A stretch of DNA of 64,000 nucleotides from Chloroflexota bacterium (GTDB lineage: Bacteria > Chloroflexota > Chloroflexia > Chloroflexales > Roseiflexaceae): the NCBI GenBank assembly GCA_041165505.1, contig JBEANH010000001.1:12021-76020 (forward strand). The letters are read 5' to 3'. The position numbers were made by a program, and so were the translations under genes. Every line of letters begins with the position of its first letter. Within the stretch, counting starts at the first letter, position 1. Shown here in pieces: positions 43,501 through 52,253 of this stretch. The notes under the pieces are model-generated. The model was not told where the DNA came from, did not search any database, and was given only the letters and a program-made list of their open reading frames with translations.

Positions 43501-44547
43501 ATGGCATATGACGAGATGCATCACAAGATCCGGCTTGCGAAGTACTCGGCATATGCAATCGCGCTTAGCGTATGTGGCGTATTGTTTGTGGTTGGAGTCA
43601 TGCTGGGAAGCGTGGTCATCCAACCACAAACCATTCTGGCCGTCTTGTGGGGATGGCTGTGGGGGGATATCGCACCAGAAATCCCATCGAGTGTGGTGAC
43701 CATTATTACCACTATCCGTTTGCCACGGGTATTGATGGTGGCGCTTGCAGGTGCCGCACTTGCGAGCTCGGGTGCCGCCTACCAAGGTCTCTTTCGAAAT
43801 CCACTCGCAGACCCGTACATCATCGGGGTTGCTGCGGGTGCCGGGTTGGGTGCAATTCTGGCAGTGGCACTGCTCGGTGGCGCCATATTGGCGTGGTATC
43901 AACTGCCACTTGGCGCGTTTGCTGGAGCGCTGTTGGTGGTGGTCATCGTCTACGTATTAGCACGACAGCACACTGGAAGTACGAGCAACGATTTGATTTT
44001 GGCTGGTGTTGCCCTCGGTGCATTGGCCAACGCACTCACCACATTCATCATGATGCGACTCGGTCGTCAGTTGTCGCAATTGTTGGGATTTCTGCTGGGG
44101 AGCACAGGGAGTATTGGTTGGAATGCAGTGGCAATCCTGGCCGTGAGTGTGAGTGTAGGGATGGCACTGTTACTGGTTGCAGCACGCGATTTAAATGTGC
44201 TGCTCCTCACCGAAGAGCATGCGTTATTTTTGGGAATTCATGTGAAATACATCCGTGCGCTGGTGATTACCGGTGCCACCCTGATGACGGCAACAGCCGT
44301 TGCATTTCACGGATTAATTGGTTTTGTGGGCATCATTGTGCCACATTCGATGCGGCTCGTCGTGGGTGGCGATCATCGTCGTCTCATTCCGCTCTCAGCG
44401 ATTGCGGGTGCCGCATTCCTCCTTTTCGCTGATATCATTGCACGTACCATCCAACCACCGCAAGAATTACCGGTGGGGATTATTACTGCTTGTTGTGGTG
44501 CGCCATTCTTCTTGTGGCAACTGCTATCACGCAGGCGTGAGGGATGA
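43501..44547 (+). CDS. FecCD-family ABC permease (BtuC-like)
   Basis: 348 aa and about 10 TM helices, with typical FecCD motifs (RLPRVLMVALAGAALA, NPLADPYIIG). Confidence 0.85.
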   Translation: MAYDEMHHKIRLAKYSAYAIALSVCGVLFVVGVMLGSVVIQPQTILAVLWGWLWGDIAPEIPSSVVTIITTIRLPRVLMVALAGAALASSGAAYQGLFRNPLADPYIIGVAAGAGLGAILAVALLGGAILAWYQLPLGAFAGALLVVVIVYVLARQHTGSTSNDLILAGVALGALANALTTFIMMRLGRQLSQLLGFLLGSTGSIGWNAVAILAVSVSVGMALLLVAARDLNVLLLTEEHALFLGIHVKYIRALVITGATLMTATAVAFHGLIGFVGIIVPHSMRLVVGGDHRRLIPLSAIAGAAFLLFADIIARTIQPPQELPVGIITACCGAPFFLWQLLSRRREG

Positions 44548-45335
44548 CGATGACACACGCGATTCAGATTGCTCATGTGCACGTAGCATATGGAACCAGC
44601 ACCGTATTGCACGACATCAATTGCTCGATTGCTCCAGGAGAAGTGGTTGTCTGTATCGGCCCAAACGGAGCAGGAAAGAGTTCGCTGTTACGTGCTATCG
44701 CTGGTGTTGTGCCACTCACCCACGGACAGATTCACATCCATGGAGACGCCATCCATGCCTTGACGCCCGCTCAGCGCGCCCAGCGTGTGGCCGTGGTTCC
44801 GCAACAGGTCCATATGCCAACCGGATTCAGCGTCTACGACGTCGTTGCCATGGCGCGGTATGTGCATCATCCCTGGTATGCACCGTTGCGAACGCACGAC
44901 CACGACATCATCGTAGATGCGTTGCAGCGTGCCGGTGTGAGTGAGTTTGCACATAAACTGGCAACACAACTCAGTGGTGGTGAACAACAACGGGTTGCAT
45001 TCGCACGGGCAATTGCTCAGCAACCAACCGTGTTGATTCTCGACGAATCCACTGCACATCTCGATTTGCGTCATCAGTACGGCATCGTCCAAACCGTTCA
45101 TCAGTTGGCGCGAGCGGGTGTCACCATCGTTGCCGCCATGCACGATATCAATCTGGCTGCAGTGACGGCGCAACGTATCTGTTTACTCGATGGTGGTCGT
45201 TTACTCATGTGTGGGACGCCCGCAGAGGTGCTACAAGCACACCATTTGTCTGCCGTGTATCAGACCCCACTCCAAGTGGTTGGGCGTCGTGATGGCCAGG
45301 TCCCCTATTTTCACATTGCAGTTGATGGTGCATAG
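44544..45335 (+). CDS. ABC transporter ATP-binding protein (BtuD/FepC-like)
   Basis: 263 aa with Walker A GPNGAGKSS, LSGGEQQR and Walker B LILDEST. ATGA overlap with the permease. Confidence 0.85.
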   Translation: MTMTHAIQIAHVHVAYGTSTVLHDINCSIAPGEVVVCIGPNGAGKSSLLRAIAGVVPLTHGQIHIHGDAIHALTPAQRAQRVAVVPQQVHMPTGFSVYDVVAMARYVHHPWYAPLRTHDHDIIVDALQRAGVSEFAHKLATQLSGGEQQRVAFARAIAQQPTVLILDESTAHLDLRHQYGIVQTVHQLARAGVTIVAAMHDINLAAVTAQRICLLDGGRLLMCGTPAEVLQAHHLSAVYQTPLQVVGRRDGQVPYFHIAVDGA

Positions 45336-45364
45336 ACCGCACAATGGGCGTGTAGGAGGGTGAC

Positions 45365-46027
45365 ATGGGATACGCAATACTCGTGATAATCGTGACTGGA
45401 ATAGGCATGCTTCTGTTGGGCGGTGTGATGTATCCCAGCTTGCCCGCACGTGTGCCGAGTCATTGGAATATTGTGGGAGAGGTGGATGCATGGCAGTCTC
45501 CACTTCAGACCGTCCTCGGCTTACCGTTGCTGAGCATCGCAATTGGTGTGGTGCTACTGTTTCTGACACGCCTTGATACCAGACCCGTCATCCAGCGCGC
45601 CATGGCGCACATGGTAATCATTTTGATGTGCTTTTTCAGTATCATCCACGTGTCCGTTGTGCTCAGCGCAGTTGGGTATACTGTCGCGGTGCCACGTGTG
45701 GTGATTGCTGCAGTCGGTCTCGTGTTTGGTGGGTTGAGCTTCATCATGCGTGATGTGATTCCGAATGATTTTATCGGAATCCGCGTAAAGTGGACGCTGG
45801 AAAATTCAATCGTGTGGCATGAAACGCATGCAATGGCCGCAGGCATGTTTGGTAGTGCCGCTGTGCTGTTGGTTGTTGGTGCATTCACCCCACTCTCGAC
45901 CACCATGCTCTTCCTGTGTCTATGTGCCGCAGTTGCAGTCGCAGTGGGGTGGCCCGTACGCTATGCGTATCGGCGTTATCACCAACTCATGACGGCCGAA
46001 ACGTCGAACGCAACCCGTGACGACTAA
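45365..46027 (+). CDS. DUF1648/SdpI-family membrane protein
   Basis: 220 aa. The N-terminal LPARVPSHWNIVGEVD motif is followed by 4-5 TM helices. Confidence 0.6.
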   Translation: MGYAILVIIVTGIGMLLLGGVMYPSLPARVPSHWNIVGEVDAWQSPLQTVLGLPLLSIAIGVVLLFLTRLDTRPVIQRAMAHMVIILMCFFSIIHVSVVLSAVGYTVAVPRVVIAAVGLVFGGLSFIMRDVIPNDFIGIRVKWTLENSIVWHETHAMAAGMFGSAAVLLVVGAFTPLSTTMLFLCLCAAVAVAVGWPVRYAYRRYHQLMTAETSNATRDD

Positions 46028-46928
46028 GGTGTCGTTTATTGATTTTGGCGACGACCGTGTAGGCAGGATCAAACACATTGCCGATTTGGTATTCAATGGC
46101 TTGTCCCATCAGCATGGCTGCTGTTGCACTATCTGCGCCACACTCAATCAGGAAACGATGCAGTTCGCTGGTGGCATGTTGGAGCGCCTGGTCGAGGGGG
46201 CGCGCATTGCCGACGGCGTAGAGGTGCGTGTCATCTTCGGCGCGTGGCCAGAGAATTCGACCCATGGGGGCTTTGTCGAGGTGGACGGTGACGGCAAGTG
46301 CTGATTCAACACCCGTGCCGCTGATTTCACCACACCCTTGGACCAAATGCCCATCTCCCGCAAAAAAGAGTGCATCAGCAACTGCCACGGGGAAATATAC
46401 GGTACAGCCTGTGGTGAACAAACGAAAATCCATGTTGCCACCATGCGGGCCCGATGTGGCCGTTGATACGGCTTCGCCGCGGCTTGGAGCCACCCCAAAG
46501 CAACCAACCATTGGTGCGTATTCCACGGTCACTGGAGCACTGTGCACCCCGCGACTTGTCAGCGTTCCCGTGTGTGCATCGTAGTCCCAGTACTCTTTGG
46601 GGAGCTTCGTGCCAGGCAAAAAGGGAAGCTGACCGACGTATTCGGGGTCTACCACATTCCCTGCCAGTGACGGGTAGCTCCACCCGTGACTACGCAAGGG
46701 TGTGAGTGAGATGAACGTGACTGCGAGCACGTCACCGGGAACGAGTGACGTGACGGCAATCGGGCCAGTCATCGGGTTGCCGGGAGTGGTGACTTGTGTA
46801 TCGGTGCCGTCAATGCCGTGGGCATCAACGCAGTACATAGTGACATAATCGCCACACGCCACAGAAAGTGCGACAGGGTGAGTCCCGATGGTGCGGTAGT
46901 AAGTGGTTGGCTGAATAACGTGCTGCAT
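45987..46928 (-). CDS. Acetamidase/formamidase (FmdA/AmdA) family protein
   Basis: The family assignment rests on the overall sequence pattern (PGNPMTGPI, GGNMD, HLVQGCGEISGTG). I chose the ATG at 46928, which has a GCGAGGA RBS. There is a 41-nt convergent overlap with the SdpI-like gene. Confidence 0.7.
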   Translation of the reverse strand: MQHVIQPTTYYRTIGTHPVALSVACGDYVTMYCVDAHGIDGTDTQVTTPGNPMTGPIAVTSLVPGDVLAVTFISLTPLRSHGWSYPSLAGNVVDPEYVGQLPFLPGTKLPKEYWDYDAHTGTLTSRGVHSAPVTVEYAPMVGCFGVAPSRGEAVSTATSGPHGGNMDFRLFTTGCTVYFPVAVADALFFAGDGHLVQGCGEISGTGVESALAVTVHLDKAPMGRILWPRAEDDTHLYAVGNARPLDQALQHATSELHRFLIECGADSATAAMLMGQAIEYQIGNVFDPAYTVVAKINKRHLSRHGLRSTFRPS

Positions 46929-46952
46929 ACGTCCTCGCTGTTCATGGCAGTT

Positions 46953-46981
46953 TTGACACATTTTCGTCGTGTGCATATACT
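46953..46981 (+). promoter_or_regulatory. Consensus-like promoter TTGACA-17-TATACT
   Basis: The hexamers and spacing are exact. The -10 lies within a perfect 12-bp palindrome TATACTAGTATA (46976-46987), which also presents TATACT on the minus strand. Confidence 0.55.
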
Positions 46982-47060
46982 AGTATACATGGACGAAGAC
47001 GCACATTTATGCCAGTTAAATAGCTGTTGACGACCACGTGCTCCTCGATGTTACTCGACG

Positions 47061-47072
47061 TGACACGTGTCA
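47061..47072. promoter_or_regulatory. Perfect 12-bp palindrome TGACACGTGTCA (candidate operator)
   Basis: Located about 30 nt upstream of the RBS of the PRC/MgtE-N/CBS gene, in a divergent intergenic region. Confidence 0.35.
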
Positions 47073-47102
47073 TTGTCAGTGTGCACACCGAGGAGGTGGG
47101 CG

Positions 47103-48359
47103 ATGCGTTTTGTATCACAGCTGATGCAGCTTCCCGTGCTTGCCAAAGATGGGAGCGAAATTGGACGTTTGCATGATGTAATTGTGCGGATTGACAATCG
47201 CCAGTACCCGCCAATCGCGGGGCTTGTGGTGATTGATCGTCGGCGTCCATTTTTTATCCCCGCCACACATCTCACCGACATTACCGAACGTACAATACAG
47301 CTCAATACGACCAATGTGAATGTGCAACGCTTTGAACGTCGCGACGGTGAAGTGTTGCTAAACAAAGATGTGCTCGATCATCAAATCATTGACATCAACG
47401 GTCGGCGTGTGGTGCGTGTCAACGACATTCAAATGGCGCAACTCGACCAAGAGTACTGCGTGGTTGGGGTAGACATCAGCCCGCAGGCGCTGATACGGCG
47501 CATTTTGCCCCGCTCGGCATCACCGCGTATTGGCGGGCGTCAAGTGATCAGTTGGGCAGATGCGCAATATCTGGCCAGTGCGGCTCCTGTGCAACTCAAA
47601 GTCTCCTACAACCGCCTTGCCGAGCTGGGTGCGGTGGATTTGGCACGTATCGTGGATGCCTTGTCGCTCCGAGAAAGTGCCGAGATTGTGGCGGCACTCG
47701 ACGACGAAACCGCGGCCGAAACACTCGAAGAAGTCTCCGATGAACGCCTCGTAGACCTACTCGAAGACATGGATCAGGAACGTGCGGCTGATATCCTCGA
47801 AGAGATGACGCCCAACGCTGCTGCAGACCTGCTCGAAGAGCTCGACGATGATGTGGCCCAACAAATTCTGGCACGCATGGAGCCCGAAGAAGCCGAAGAC
47901 GTGAAAGAACTCATGGCCTACGATGAAAATAGCGCTGGGCGGACGATGACCACCGACCTGATTGTGGCCTTCCCCGATGACACGGTGCAATGCGTGATAG
48001 ACGAGCTACGCGCCCGCGACGAACTCCCCGAACCATTCACCGAAATCTATGTCGTTGAACGCCGAGATACTGACACAAGCCAACATCTTGGTCTCCCACT
48101 CGTTGGCATTGTGCGCATCCCAAAGCTGCTCGTGAGTGATGCCACGGTGCAGTTACGTGACATCCTCGAAGCCGTTCCCACCATTGCAGCTGATGATCAT
48201 ACTGACGTTGCTGCACGAGTACTCGGTGAATACAATCTGACTGCTGTGCCTGTACTCGATGAACATGGTGCACTCATCGGCGCAGTGAGTGTGGATGACG
48301 CATTAGCGCAGCTGTTGCCTGATATTTGGCTCCGGCGCGGTTCACGTAATTTCGGTTAA
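47103..48359 (+). CDS. Soluble PRC-barrel + MgtE N-domain + CBS-pair protein (no membrane domain)
   Basis: GAGGAGG RBS. The N-terminal region is PRC-barrel-like. It is followed by acidic MgtE_N helical repeats (EDMDQERAADILEEM, AADLLEELDDD) and then a tandem CBS pair. There are no hydrophobic helices. Confidence 0.75.
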   Translation: MRFVSQLMQLPVLAKDGSEIGRLHDVIVRIDNRQYPPIAGLVVIDRRRPFFIPATHLTDITERTIQLNTTNVNVQRFERRDGEVLLNKDVLDHQIIDINGRRVVRVNDIQMAQLDQEYCVVGVDISPQALIRRILPRSASPRIGGRQVISWADAQYLASAAPVQLKVSYNRLAELGAVDLARIVDALSLRESAEIVAALDDETAAETLEEVSDERLVDLLEDMDQERAADILEEMTPNAAADLLEELDDDVAQQILARMEPEEAEDVKELMAYDENSAGRTMTTDLIVAFPDDTVQCVIDELRARDELPEPFTEIYVVERRDTDTSQHLGLPLVGIVRIPKLLVSDATVQLRDILEAVPTIAADDHTDVAARVLGEYNLTAVPVLDEHGALIGAVSVDDALAQLLPDIWLRRGSRNFG

Positions 48360-48374
48360 AACGAGGAAGAGTGC

Positions 48375-49667
48375 ATGACACACGAGCAAATTACATGGCA
48401 AACACGATGGGTACGTGCGCTGCGTCGTCGTTGGTGGCCGTATCTCGCGGCGATTGGTCCAGGAGTGCTTGCTGCAAGTGCCGGTAATGATGCAGGTGGA
48501 ATCGCCACCTATGCATCTGCAGGTGCACGCTACGGTTATTCACTCTTGTGGGTCATGGTGCTTATCACTGTGGCTGTGGCCGTCGTACAAGAAATGTCAG
48601 CCCGCCTAGGGGCGGTGACGGGTAAGGGATTTGCTGACTTGGTACGTGAAAATTTCCCTATTCGCGTCACTGCGTTTGTCATGCTCACGCTGCTTCTGGC
48701 CAATACGGGAATCATTGTGTCGGAATTCGTGGGTATCGCAGCAGCAGCCGAACTCTTTGGGGTCAGTAAATATATCGCTGTTCCCATGGCAGCGTTTACG
48801 ATGTGGTTCGTGATTACCCGGGGCAGTTATGCTCGTGCAGAACAATTTTTGCTCGTTCTGAGCGCCGTCTTTTTGTCATATGTGATTTCCGTGTTGTTGG
48901 TGCATCCTGCCCCCGCCGATATTTTGCAGGGATTGCGTCCCACATTCGTCGCTGAAAGCGAGTACATCAAACTCATTGTGGCGTTAGTTGGGACAACGAT
49001 TTCACCATATATGCAGCTCTACGTGCAATCGTCTGTCGTAGAAAAGGGTGTCACCGTCAACGAATTTCGCTATACACGCGTTGATGTAGTCGTTGGTACC
49101 ATCCTTGCTGGAATCGTAGCGGCATGTATCATTATCGCTACTGCCACCACGCTTTTTCCACAGGGGATTGTCATTGTTACTGCCGCAGATGCCGCTATTG
49201 CACTTACGCCAATTGCCGGTGAATATGCCACACTCCTGTTCGGTATCGGGTTGCTCGGGGCATCACTACTGGCAGCTGGTATTTTGCCGTTGTCAACCAC
49301 CTACATGTTAAGTGAGTCGTTGGGGTTCGAGCGTGGGGTGTCGCGGACGTGGAACGAAGCTCCGATTTTCATGGGCGTATTTACCGTTTTGATTGTGTTT
49401 GGTGCCGTTGTTGCGTTGATCCCCGGCTTGCCGCTAATTGATGTGCTTATCGGTGTCTATGTCCTCAACGGCGTGTTGCTTCCCATCGAGCTCATCGCCA
49501 TCGTGCTCTTAATCAATAATCCGGAGCTGATGGGGACACACGTGAATACGTGGTGGCATAATCTCATCGTGTGGGGGATTGTAGCCCTCGTTGGGATGCT
49601 TTCCCTGCTGTATATTGCTTGGCAACTCTACGACTGGATGGGGGGTGCCGGCATCGTCGGTGGTTGA
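48375..49667 (+). CDS. NRAMP-family transporter with non-canonical metal site
   Basis: 430 aa and about 11 TM helices with overall NRAMP similarity. The TM1 motif reads DAGG (48489-48500) instead of DPGN. The TM6 motif reads GTTISPYM (48990-49013) instead of GATVMPHN. Confidence 0.8.
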   Translation: MTHEQITWQTRWVRALRRRWWPYLAAIGPGVLAASAGNDAGGIATYASAGARYGYSLLWVMVLITVAVAVVQEMSARLGAVTGKGFADLVRENFPIRVTAFVMLTLLLANTGIIVSEFVGIAAAAELFGVSKYIAVPMAAFTMWFVITRGSYARAEQFLLVLSAVFLSYVISVLLVHPAPADILQGLRPTFVAESEYIKLIVALVGTTISPYMQLYVQSSVVEKGVTVNEFRYTRVDVVVGTILAGIVAACIIIATATTLFPQGIVIVTAADAAIALTPIAGEYATLLFGIGLLGASLLAAGILPLSTTYMLSESLGFERGVSRTWNEAPIFMGVFTVLIVFGAVVALIPGLPLIDVLIGVYVLNGVLLPIELIAIVLLINNPELMGTHVNTWWHNLIVWGIVALVGMLSLLYIAWQLYDWMGGAGIVGG

Positions 49668-49689
49668 TGCCGGCCCTGTCCAGGTGTCG

Positions 49690-50025
49690 TTAAAACTCGA
49701 TATCGTCAGCGCAGCGTGGACCTGTATCAGTCCAGTCGGGCATGCTCTGCAGGGTTACTTGCGGAATGACGTGCATATCAGTATCAACCGAAATCTGGCA
49801 ACTGAGGCGGTATTGTCCCAAATAACCCTTTTCAGTCAATTTGGCCGTTTCGGCGGCGTTCATGCTGGCTGGTTCACCGGCGACAAACTGCACACGACAC
49901 GTGGTACAGCGGGATTTGCCCCCACAACGATGACCAATCATTATTCCCGCGTCTTCGATGACATTCACCAGGCGTGTGCCTACAGGTACGTCAACAACCG
50001 TTGTGCCGATAGTTACTTTTGGCAT
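49690..50025 (-). CDS. 2Fe-2S ferredoxin
   Basis: 111 aa with cluster cysteines C-x5-C-x2-C...C (HRCGGKSRCTTCRV ... LSCQ). Confidence 0.8.
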   Translation of the reverse strand: MPKVTIGTTVVDVPVGTRLVNVIEDAGIMIGHRCGGKSRCTTCRVQFVAGEPASMNAAETAKLTEKGYLGQYRLSCQISVDTDMHVIPQVTLQSMPDWTDTGPRCADDIEF

Positions 50026-50029
50026 GGGA

Positions 50030-51241
50030 TTACCCTTTCTGCAGTGTGCGAATCAGTGGTATATAGATAATCAACGCTATACATCCTAACACAAATGGTA
50101 TGCTGAACGCCCATTGATAGCCACTCGCAATATAGTGACCAGATGGGGTGCGTCCCACATAATTAATGACTTGCCCCATCACCCATTGCAACACCCAGCC
50201 ACCAAAGAAGCCAAAGATGTTGAGCGCAGTGGCTGCGCGGCCACTCATCGTATCCGCAAAGAGGGTGCGTACTTGGGGGAGCATGATGACATTAAACGAT
50301 GAGCCGAAACCAAAAATGCCATAGACAGCAAAGAGCGTTGCTGGTGTGGCAGGAAACGGGATAAAGACGAAATATGCTAATGTAGTTAACATAACAATTT
50401 GTGCGCCTATTAGCACATTGACACCACCAAACCGATCAGACAAAATCCCACTGGCTGCATAGCCAAGCACTGCGCCGATACCAAGGACGAGGAGTAATAA
50501 GCCGACGTCGCTACTTGATACCCGTGCCACATCATACGCAAACGGTCCGGCCCACAACGTCTGTACCGCAAGCATGCTCCCGAGCATGGAAAAGTAGAGG
50601 GGAGCCATGCGCAGAAAGGTGCGATGTGTGTAGATTTCTGCATACCCATCTAGCACTGAGCCCCCCGGTTTGCCGAGTGACGGTGTATGCGGAGCGTCGT
50701 GTCCAATACGGCGAATGCCGTAGGCAATACAGGCGACAATGGGTGCACTCACCAAAAAGATGGTACGCCAGCCGTAGGTGTCGGCAAAATACGCCATCGG
50801 TGACGTGGATAACAAACCACCACACGCCCCGAGTGCAACCATGACACTGGTCATAGTTGCAAGTTGGTTTTTGGGCACCCAGTTACCGAACGTCTTTACT
50901 GCACCCATCAATCCACCCGCCGTGCCAAGTCCGATGAGTGTGCGCCCCAGCGCAAGTGGCCAGAAACTGGTAGCGGTCGCAAAGAGCACACACCCAATCA
51001 CGGTGGGAATCATGAGGAGTGGGATGACAATCCGTGACCCGTAGCGATCGAGGGCAGCGCCGAGGGGGAGTTGCATCAACGAGAACGAGATGTAGTAGAT
51101 ACTCGTCATGGTGCCTAACTGATCGGCGTTTAGTGCGAGTTCTTGCATCAAGTCGGCCGAAATTACTGCATTTGCAGCGCGTAAAAAAGAGGCAACCATG
51201 TAGCCAAACGCAAACGCCGCAAAGACTGAGCGAAAGCGCAT
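50030..51241 (-). CDS. MFS transporter
   Basis: About 12 TM helices. I chose the ATG at 51241, which is tightly coupled to the MmpS-like stop (TAACCATG). Confidence 0.8.
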   Translation of the reverse strand: MRFRSVFAAFAFGYMVASFLRAANAVISADLMQELALNADQLGTMTSIYYISFSLMQLPLGAALDRYGSRIVIPLLMIPTVIGCVLFATATSFWPLALGRTLIGLGTAGGLMGAVKTFGNWVPKNQLATMTSVMVALGACGGLLSTSPMAYFADTYGWRTIFLVSAPIVACIAYGIRRIGHDAPHTPSLGKPGGSVLDGYAEIYTHRTFLRMAPLYFSMLGSMLAVQTLWAGPFAYDVARVSSSDVGLLLLVLGIGAVLGYAASGILSDRFGGVNVLIGAQIVMLTTLAYFVFIPFPATPATLFAVYGIFGFGSSFNVIMLPQVRTLFADTMSGRAATALNIFGFFGGWVLQWVMGQVINYVGRTPSGHYIASGYQWAFSIPFVLGCIALIIYIPLIRTLQKG

Positions 51242-51243
51242 GG

Positions 51244-51675
51244 TTATTCCTTGGCTGCGGTTGGTACAACCGCCATGCACATGATGCTATCGGTAACTGT
51301 TTCGGGCTGCTGACTTATCACTTGACCGGCGGTCGAAATTTGGCAACCGATTGTGCCGGTTCCACGATTCGTGACTTGAATGAGTAAATCACGGCCATGT
51401 GGCGCACGGAAACTGAAGCGCCACGGTGGGGCTCCCACCCGTGAATCGTTGTATGCCAAATCGTTGAGATAACGAATCGCTACTTCACTGGTGTTACCGG
51501 TGACTTCGTACTCGATGCGTGCACTCCGTGGTGTCAGGTCAACTGTTTCTTGCTGTGCTTTATAGATATTGCCGAAAATCCCAACAGCCAATGCCAGTGA
51601 TACCAATACTACGGCCATTATCGTGGCACGGCGCTTACCGGTGGCAACGTGAGTCTGTTCATCAAATGGTTGCAT
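51244..51675 (-). CDS. MmpS-like small membrane protein
   Basis: A single N-terminal TM is followed by a domain matching the MmpS pattern (YEVTG...AIRYLND...PPW...GTIGCQISTAGQV...C). I chose the ATG at 51675, which has a GAGGA RBS. Confidence 0.65.
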   Translation of the reverse strand: MQPFDEQTHVATGKRRATIMAVVLVSLALAVGIFGNIYKAQQETVDLTPRSARIEYEVTGNTSEVAIRYLNDLAYNDSRVGAPPWRFSFRAPHGRDLLIQVTNRGTGTIGCQISTAGQVISQQPETVTDSIMCMAVVPTAAKE

Positions 51676-51740
51676 ATGTCCTCGAATACTAGAATATGGT
51701 GGCGCGATGCACGCATGCATCACTTCAGTATAATAGCACT

Positions 51741-52253
51741 ATGAGTCCACGCCAAAAAACACCACTCACATACGAACTCGCACTGCTTGGTTTTGTGGCA
51801 TCGTCTCCACTCCACGCATATGCACTCCACCTGGCGTTGATGCGCTCACCGCTTGGCAACGTGTGGCACCTCAAACAGAGTGCCTGCTATGCCATGATTT
51901 CGCGTTTGGTGGATGATGCGCTCCTCGATACCCGTGATGACGATACTACGGCACGCGGTAAACGCTTTTTGCATATCACGGCAGCGGGTCAAGCGGCATT
52001 TTTACAGTGGATGGTGGCTCCGGTGCATCATCCGCGTGATATGCGCATCGAGTTCCTCGCCAAACTCTATTTTGCAACTGCACAATCGCCATCACATCGT
52101 GCCACATTGATTGCCGCACAGCAAGAAAAAATACCACAGTGGTACGGTGATGCTCCCGTAGCAGATCGTTTTACCCACGACGTGTACGCATACCGCCGTG
52201 GCCATATTGACGCAATTGCGCTGTGGCTTGCGCAACTTACCTGTCCCCCATAA
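51741..52253 (+). CDS. PadR-family transcriptional regulator
   Basis: Has a winged-helix PadR pattern (LLGFV...PLHAYAL...YAMISRLVDDALL). The ATG at 51741 lies 7 nt after a TATAAT box, so the transcript may be leaderless. Confidence 0.75.
   Translation: MSPRQKTPLTYELALLGFVASSPLHAYALHLALMRSPLGNVWHLKQSACYAMISRLVDDALLDTRDDDTTARGKRFLHITAAGQAAFLQWMVAPVHHPRDMRIEFLAKLYFATAQSPSHRATLIAAQQEKIPQWYGDAPVADRFTHDVYAYRRGHIDAIALWLAQLTCPP

Follow-up and report, generated by a model that had tools for sequence, protein, structure and literature searches.

The two plus-strand genes at positions 47103-48359 (gene A, encoding 418 residues) and 48375-49667 (gene B, encoding 430 residues) of the window, that is, of the whole stretch of 64,000 nucleotides analysed here from a Chloroflexota bacterium of the Roseiflexaceae (contig JBEANH010000001.1), almost certainly constitute an operon of an NRAMP-related Mg2+ transporter (NRMT) with its known partner gene. 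Judged from its sequence, gene B is an NRMT, and Mg2+ is its expected cargo by analogy with EleNRMT; gene A encodes a tandem PRC/MgtE_N/CBS protein for which, considering the operon as a whole, we lean towards the role of a soluble feedback partner of the gene B product. Both the pairing and the same feedback idea were published by Shin et al. (2014, PLoS Genet 10:e1004429, PMC4072509), so that the view taken in a preliminary description of this stretch, namely that the arrangement is uncharacterised, does not hold; a limited literature search brought up no subsequent study of the partner. The locus adds no new principle, and it provides a clean, intact example in a genome devoid of an MgtE channel, of a second Nramp and of a second MgtE_N domain. 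Three clade-specific features described below, namely the ion site with Ser and Tyr, the loss of sensor ligands and an acidic small open reading frame (sORF) in the leader, are leads and not findings.

The assignment of gene B is based on a profile match, the comparison with solved structures, a motif and a tree. Its product matches the Pfam Nramp profile PF01566 over positions 1-356 of 357 (E 3.9e-89), ten hydrophobic segments are detected, and the best relative of known structure is EleNRMT (7qia), which aligns over the whole length with 369 bits (E 3e-109), as compared with 96 bits for DraNramp, at most 96 bits (E 1e-26) for Mn2+-transporting NRAMPs, and 57 bits for the NRAT aluminium transporter (8ont). 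In the alignment to DraNramp and EleNRMT, the D-P-G-N motif of the first transmembrane segment (TM1) of DraNramp reads D39-A-G-G42 (48489-48500) in gene B, and A-T-V-M-P-H in TM6 reads T207-T-I-S210-P-Y212 (48993-49010). The site is therefore non-canonical, as had been noted from the letters alone: Asn is replaced by Gly, and both the Met and the His are lost. The signature of NRMTs has been given as DxxG on α1 and TxxA/T on α6 by Ramanadane et al. (2022, eLife 11:e74589, PMC8806188). Gene B exhibits DxxG and Thr207, and has at the last position Ser210, which is neither Ala nor Thr. Since Ser is found there in 39 of 135 aligned NRMT relatives (Thr in 90, Ala in 6), Ser210 appears to represent a common variant of the signature and not a failure to match it. 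The Asp, Gly and Thr of the site as well as the α3 Glu (E117 in gene B, equivalent to E133 in EleNRMT) are nearly invariant in the same set.

Compared with the EleNRMT structures (7qia/7qic), gene B thus retains the equivalents of D, G, T and E133, whereas Ser210, Tyr362 and Tyr212 take the places of Ala227, Gln379 and Trp229. Tyr362 (49458-49460) occupies the α10 position at which Gln is found in 119 and Tyr in 13 of the 135 relatives; this Gln belongs to the general SLC11 mechanism and does not define NRMTs. Of the two α6b His positions, the first is occupied by Tyr212 and the second, according to an alignment made by hand, by V219; EleNRMT is described as having Trp and Asn there (PMC8806188). 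Because the first of these positions is not protonatable, as is also the case in EleNRMT, transport by gene B is expected to proceed without coupling to H+. EleNRMT itself has been reported to carry Mg2+ and Mn2+ without H+ coupling and to require T224 for Mg2+ (PMC8806188).

In a FastTree phylogeny rooted on canonical and other Nramps from Chloroflexota, gene B sits deep inside the clade bearing the NRMT motif, in which EleNRMT is likewise nested and which is separated from the other Nramps with a support of 0.965. The combination of Ser and Tyr, found in 13 of the 135 aligned relatives and in 17 of the roughly 150 sequences used for the tree, defines the immediate clade of the window, which comprises nine Chloroflexota sequences; its sister group, also with support 1.0, includes sequences from Acidobacteriota, Nitrospira and Chloroflexi SZAS-1. 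The change from Gln to Tyr arose several times in the tree. Alignment and phylogeny against NRAMPs, NRMTs and NRATs hence agree on an NRMT affiliation and substantiate the statement of the preliminary description that the substitutions resemble those of NRMTs.

The second component, gene A, combines a tandem PRC module with an MgtE-type sensor. Pfam profiles identify PRC (PF05239) at residues 3-70 (E 4.8e-5; 23.7 bits versus a cut-off of 21.2), MgtE_N (PF03448) at residues 177-276 (E 2.4e-23) and CBS at residues 356-403 (E 1e-8), and the NCBIfam mgtE model is matched in its N-terminal half, by residues 171-401. An AlphaFold2 model of the full product, built on 44 homologues (mean pLDDT, the predicted local distance difference test, 83.8), exhibits β-barrels at residues 1-70 and 83-156, a helical N domain at 169-271, a CBS pair at 275-396 and a C-terminal helix. 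According to Foldseek, the C-terminal 240 residues match the MgtE cytoplasmic domain 8gpv (E 2.5e-19, template-modelling score 0.85, root-mean-square deviation 1.9 Å) and likewise superpose on the MgtE cytoplasmic domains 2yvy and 2oux (∼2 Å for 2yvy). The N-terminal 160 residues, modelled alone (AlphaFold2 pLDDT 85.5), match the tandem-PRC proteins CdpB1/CdpB2 (8qzo) over 161-167 alignment columns with E 7e-6 to 4e-5, and also single PRC barrels such as those of reaction-centre (RC) H subunits and RimM (entries including 8onw and 1pm3). Since the mean hydrophobicity does not exceed 1.36 in any 19-residue window, gene A lacks a transmembrane segment. Hence, the earlier suggestion of PRC-barrel repeats joined to the full cytoplasmic part of MgtE without a pore is supported by Pfam, AlphaFold2, Foldseek and hydrophobicity alike.

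On the DNA, the module is laid out as (i) a basic PRC barrel 1 (residues 1-80; 47103-47342; pI 11; pLDDT ∼90; Pfam PRC and Foldseek matches to CdpB1/B2 and RC-H), (ii) a PRC-like barrel 2 with a helical insert (residues 81-165; 47343-47597), which is identified by the AlphaFold2 models and the tandem match to 8qzo and holds the family-invariant residues D92, D108, R132 and W151, (iii) the helical MgtE_N domain (residues 166-272; 47598-47918), supported by PF03448, Foldseek and alignments to Protein Data Bank entries and having 33 acidic residues among 107, (iv) the CBS pair (residues 273-400; 47919-48302), seen with Pfam, AlphaFold2 and Foldseek, and (v) a C-terminal helix with the basic tail LLPDIWLRRGSRNFG (residues 401-418 plus stop; 48303-48359; pI 11.7), for which the family consensus is LLPExWxRRGxRxF.

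Gene A shares with MgtE (T. thermophilus 2yvy/2yvx; 8gpv and 8gps) an N domain and CBS pair that superpose to ∼2 Å, and differs in several respects: it has no pore, it carries an additional tandem PRC module, it is made as a protein of its own from a gene next to that of a carrier with an unrelated fold, three of its ligand positions are neutral (see below), and in extended HMMER alignments its basic W-x-R-R-G-x-R-x-F tail maps to the place of the acidic plug helix. As gene A has no transmembrane segment and the MgtE pore domain PF01769 is not detected by profile search anywhere in the genome, gene A is not an MgtE channel. The N-terminal 160 residues share the tandem PRC fold with CdpB1/CdpB2, archaeal cell-division proteins whose PRC barrels are protein-protein interaction modules (PMC10120694). 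Sequence identity to these proteins is 14-16% and they are functionally unrelated; in gene A, unlike in CdpB1/CdpB2, the PRC module is fused to an MgtE-type sensor.

The linkage of the two families is conserved well beyond the window. Among the candidates scored, 2374 full-length relatives of gene A were found at E <= 1e-5, and 80 genomic loci encoding the partner were inspected, of which 76 had room downstream. All 17 non-actinobacterial loci with such room adjoin an NRMT, which lies directly downstream on the same strand in 16 cases and is convergent in one. The close clade contributes three more lineages, from Acidobacteriota, Nitrospira and Chloroflexi, in each of which (3/3) an Nramp gene directly follows that of the partner; the two genes overlap by 1 nt at one extreme and are 29 nt apart at the other, and the surroundings are otherwise unrelated. 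Conversely, 49 of the 71 NRMT-like genes present in 151 Chloroflexota genomes adjoin a partner gene. All partner-linked Nramp relatives examined, down to 33% identity, exhibit the motifs NDAGG and GTT(I/V)(A/T/S)P(W/Y), with GTT(I/V)(A/T)PW in the distant ones (33-37% identity, some having 13-14 transmembrane segments), and no partner gene accompanies either a canonical DPGN/AxxM Nramp or a clade with DPTT in TM1. The co-occurrence that the preliminary description proposed to survey is thus real and strong across phyla. Moreover, the partner clade that has lost sensor ligands (see below) co-occurs with the Ser/Tyr clade of NRMTs in Chloroflexota, Acidobacteriota and Nitrospira.

The precedent for this pairing comes from Shin et al., who found most nrmT genes to be adjacent to one encoding the MgtE cytoplasmic domain and proposed for the product of the latter either cytoplasmic feedback regulation or chaperone activity (PMC4072509). 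In their operons (C. acetobutylicum Ca_c0685; A. capsulatum Acp2976/Acp2977), as here, the MgtE-cytoplasmic gene lies directly upstream of the Nramp-related gene. The passages drawn on here from that study refer to the partner simply as a small protein and leave PRC unmentioned, whereas gene A comprises 418 residues with a tandem PRC extension; those drawn on from the EleNRMT study mention neither an operon nor an accessory or CBS protein, and name MgtE just as an unrelated transporter (PMC8806188).

Uncoupled carriers such as NRMTs raise the question of how a cell avoids overload, and since 2014 the partner gene conserved beside them has been the prime candidate for an answer. By analogy with EleNRMT, gene B would be an H+-independent carrier for the uptake of Mg2+ (and Mn2+), with an enlarged site that accepts a largely hydrated ion. 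Gene A would be co-transcribed with gene B, be translated from its own Shine-Dalgarno (SD) sequence, and correspond to the cytoplasmic portion of a PRC-extended MgtE-type channel minus the pore. Its product may dimerise through the CBS domains, as MgtE does, and dock on the cytoplasmic face of the NRMT by means of the tandem PRC barrels, the basic C-terminal tail, or both; these are the likely docking elements because PRC barrels are protein-protein modules (8qzo) and the tail is located where MgtE has its plug helix. It would then restrain transport when a cytoplasmic signal is high, the signal being a divalent cation or, possibly, an adenine nucleotide bound at the CBS pair. An uncoupled, potential-driven importer would thereby acquire, in trans, a feedback brake like the ones built in cis into MgtE and CorA. 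Whether the partner acts as a negative regulator that binds its target directly and responds to a cation or a nucleotide is, in our estimation, evenly balanced.

Several observations weigh against the feedback role. Three regulatory acidic ligands of MgtE are lost in this clade, and the acidic cluster of the plug helix has become a basic tail. Gene B departs from EleNRMT at S210 (A227) and Y362 (Q379). No partner is encoded on the same contig for 22 of the 71 Chloroflexota NRMT genes, and NRMT-partner fusions are virtually absent, with one doubtful case among 220 long homologues. CabNRMT and EleNRMT function without a partner. Finally, when B. subtilis expressed both A. capsulatum genes together, Mg2+ rescue is reported not to have improved further, and the A. 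capsulatum NRMT relative to have mainly rescued a Mn2+ defect (PMC4072509).

The ligand positions deserve closer consideration. The cytoplasmic domain of MgtE senses Mg2+ and closes the channel, and D72, D73 and D228 of ChMgtE are ligands of the conserved regulatory interface sites Mg4/5/7/8 that gate MgtE (PMC10200709). When the ligands of CbMgtE and ChMgtE (same source) were mapped through HMMER alignments onto the family alignment, the equivalents of these three residues in gene A were found to be N238, A239 and A402. Among the seven ChMgtE ligands of Mg4/5/7, E144 and D225 have acidic equivalents in gene A (E310 and D399), and D72, D73, D228, E201 and D204 are represented by N, A, A, G and N. 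Acidic residues are retained in gene A at the MgtE ligand positions E206, D242, D368, D399, E263, D266 and D285, the last three of which belong to the Mg10 site and are kept across the family alignment. Two of the three lost ligands correspond to what we take to be D91 and D250 of TtMgtE, and the equivalents of what are presumably E59, D95 and D247 of TtMgtE are kept in the family, the Tt numbering being provisional and agreeing with the chain indices. All 25 members of the window's partner clade are neutral at the D72, D73 and D228 positions (S/G/N/A, A and A, respectively), whereas the distant NRMT-linked group has Asp in 9/9, Glu or Asp in 9/9, and Asp or Glu in 7/9 (Asn in 2/9), and sequences linked to the small membrane protein DUF1003 have Asp at all three positions in 10/10.

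Because N238, A239 and A402 replace acidic ligands, gene A is best viewed as MgtE-like in its fold but as an unfaithful copy of the Mg2+ sensor, and the sensor of the window's clade may, judged from these residues, respond differently or to another ligand. It is conceivable, though in our estimation rather unlikely, that the partner regulates the NRMT and senses something other than Mg2+, that is, Mn2+ or, through its CBS pair, the adenylate or energy state, and that it does so especially in this clade. Against such a change of ligand stand an N domain that is still highly acidic and the conservation of E263, D266 and D285 as well as of the presumed equivalents of Tt E59, D95 and D247. It would nevertheless account for the neutral residues that replace acids conserved in the distant NRMT-linked and DUF1003-linked clades, and would be consistent with the description of the A. 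capsulatum pair as acting as a Mn2+ system (PMC4072509) and with the binding of ATP by the CBS pairs of MgtE and CorB/CorC (5x9g and 7m1t are among the fold matches).

Alternatively, the transporter of this sub-clade might not primarily be a Mg2+ importer if the Ser and Tyr in its site shift the selectivity towards Mn2+ or another hard cation. The genome contains no canonical MntH-type Nramp (the search for Nramps returned gene B only), the two residues set gene B and a small fraction of its relatives apart from EleNRMT, mutation of Q379 is reported to have strongly impaired EleNRMT (PMC8806188), and the rescue of a Mn2+ transport defect by the A. capsulatum relative (PMC4072509) points in the same direction. 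Gene B has however kept D39, G42, T207 and E117, of which T207 is equivalent to the T224 that EleNRMT needs for Mg2+, and the Gln-to-Tyr change arose repeatedly within NRMT clades that otherwise appear uniform. A shifted selectivity seems to us a minor possibility.

A role as a cytoplasmic metal chaperone or buffer, which would take over the ion once the NRMT has let it go and would not gate the transporter, is the alternative put forward by Shin et al. and might explain why co-expression had no effect on transport in their study (PMC4072509) and why gene A is so acidic overall (pI 4.4). Free Mg2+ is, however, present at millimolar concentration and needs no chaperone, and the occurrence of the same module ahead of DUF1003 and in fusions with MgtE-type membrane domains is more in keeping with a regulatory domain, so that we consider this role quite improbable. 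Least probable of all is that the adjacency reflects mere co-regulation, or descent from a PRC-MgtE gene located beside nrmT, with no physical or functional coupling: lineages in which the genes are unlinked (for example G026, with three NRMT genes and an orphan partner beside yceD/fabD) and a full-length PRC-MgtE-type gene with five transmembrane segments in the partner's place (L096) would fit it, but not the tight same-strand linkage across phyla in otherwise unrelated neighbourhoods, nor the co-variation of partner and transporter sub-types noted above.

Relatives of gene A do not invariably accompany an NRMT. In Actinomycetota, 59 of 59 partner relatives (within L016-L080) precede a gene for the small membrane protein DUF1003 (PF06210) and not an NRMT, and none of the 76 partner loci lacked both neighbours. 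The start of DUF1003 often overlaps the stop of the partner by 4-11 nt, and Mrp/NBP35 is usually next. These DUF1003-linked relatives exhibit 29-37% identity to gene A and the same tandem-PRC/MgtE_N/CBS layout. DUF1003 is also encoded downstream of a partner relative at four Chloroflexota loci (L091, L092, L093 and L102). Since relatives of gene A directly precede it, a cation-related function of DUF1003 is suggested; a limited literature search found no paper linking DUF1003 to magnesium. It is tempting to speculate that tandem-PRC/MgtE_N/CBS constitutes a portable sensor that docks in trans on unrelated membrane proteins, namely NRMTs in most phyla, DUF1003 in Actinomycetota and some Chloroflexota, or its own MgtE-type membrane domain, and that the sub-clade of the window has been re-tuned in its ion site, sensor ligands and sORF leader; taken together, these two propositions appear doubtful to us. 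If the idea of a portable sensor were true, a role of DUF1003 in cation transport or signalling would so far have gone unnoticed.

The leader of the operon provides the third clade-specific lead. A promoter-like sequence, TTGACA-17 nt-TATACT (46953-46981), agrees with the consensus at 11 of 12 positions; its promoter function is inferred, and the same TATACT box recurs without change in L001-L011, the 11 close relatives compared. It is followed by a putatively coding sORF of the leaderless type, MDEDAHLCQLNSC and stop (46989-47030), the ATG of which begins 7 nt after the -10 box. The arrangement TATACT-N7-ATG with an sORF of 8-14 codons beginning M-D-(D/E)-D is present in the window and all 11 close relatives, with MDER in L009. 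Third-position (wobble) changes keep the acidic residues. The acidic motif occurs once in the genome, no such sORF precedes corA there, and none is present in the more distant nrmT loci. Further downstream, in the hairpin region at 47041-47095, an anti-SD sequence CTCCTCG (47041-47047) can pair in the minimum free energy (MFE) fold with the strong SD of gene A (CGAGGAG, 47089-47095, 5' of the ATG at 47103) around an inner hairpin. This inner hairpin is kept in relatives, where 4 of its 6 pairs show compensatory changes, and looks terminator-like in L002-L006 and L009-L011 because a T-run follows the strong stem; the fold of the window leader has a z-score of -1.0, no better than shuffled sequences. 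Gene B has an SD of its own (GAGGAAG), read directly from the 15-nt spacer between the genes (48360-48374), the length of which agrees with the preliminary description.

Nascent chains with acidic N-termini make ribosomes drop off in a Mg2+-sensitive manner, an effect that E. coli exploits in MgtL (Chadani et al.). By analogy, the leader sORF might be an MgtL-like Mg2+ sensor that acts through destabilisation of the ribosome and controls the terminator or the SD-sequestering hairpin, a suggestion which we consider tentative and on the unlikely side. Should Mg2+ sensing by this acidic peptide be borne out, the MgtL-type mechanism would extend beyond enterobacteria. A purely thermodynamic attenuator switch was considered and rejected: in the MFE structures computed for the 12 leaders, the same terminator or hairpin persists whether the RNA is left unmasked or the sORF and 12 nt are blocked, and no alternative antiterminator appears. 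Neither an M-box nor another Rfam family was detected at E <= 1 in 44000-52000. M-boxes are frequent in the operons of Shin et al., where the A. capsulatum nrmT operon is described as likewise lacking one (PMC4072509); at the present locus, a conserved acidic sORF and a hairpin are found instead.

The source assembly comprises 3.1 Mb and is 93% complete. NRMTs are the fourth known bacterial route of Mg2+ uptake. Profile searches of the genome show gene A to be its sole MgtE_N protein and gene B its sole Nramp, and as the genome has one CorA and no MgtE channel, the pair of genes A and B probably represents one of two routes of Mg2+ entry. The flanking genes (a B12-type ABC importer, a formamidase, a ferredoxin and an MFS transporter) are unrelated.

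Some minor observations were made on the wider families. The search for fusions employed a concatenated query of genes A and B with candidates restricted to long proteins. P0121 (853 residues) was rejected as a wrong-frame artefact with an R/P/G-rich N-terminus, and a 947-residue open frame at G104:C112 was rejected because it is composed of two different frames. P0177 (634 residues, on a 3.9-kb JGI metagenome contig) is the only candidate for a fusion of MgtE_N/CBS with an NRMT, with a linker of ∼70 residues, and possibly represents a read-through or assembly error. In the unlinked case of G026, the orphan partner (L084) stands beside yceD/fabD/fabG-like genes and the three NRMT-like genes are located on other contigs; partner and NRMT-like genes are likewise unlinked in other members of the same family (G013, G038, G050 and G062). 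The protein in the partner's place at L096 (G025:C118; also in G049, G037, G061 and G012) comprises 598 residues with PRC, MgtE_N and CBS in addition to its five transmembrane segments, and is encoded 13 nt upstream of the NRMT. L097 and L098 encode what appear from sequence to be PRC-MgtE-type proteins of 649-736 residues with five transmembrane segments, away from any NRMT.

A distant clade with the NRMT motif (L109, L110, L112, L113 and L116), having 35-37% identity to gene B, carries a C-terminal extension of ∼100 residues and 12-14 predicted transmembrane segments, and the partner gene is found either upstream or downstream of the NRMT. The partnerless DPTT clade (L118 and L119; G040:C1 and G127:C383) is Nramp-related and exhibits D-P-T-T in TM1, G-T-T-L-T-(G/S)-Y in TM6 and Ser at the position of the α10 Gln, a motif that fits no published NRAMP, NRAT or NRMT signature. 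Finally, two contigs of metagenome-assembled genomes labelled 'uncultured Klebsiella sp.' (L001 and L008) carry the Chloroflexota-type operon with 65-82% protein identity, and their labels are probably mis-assigned.

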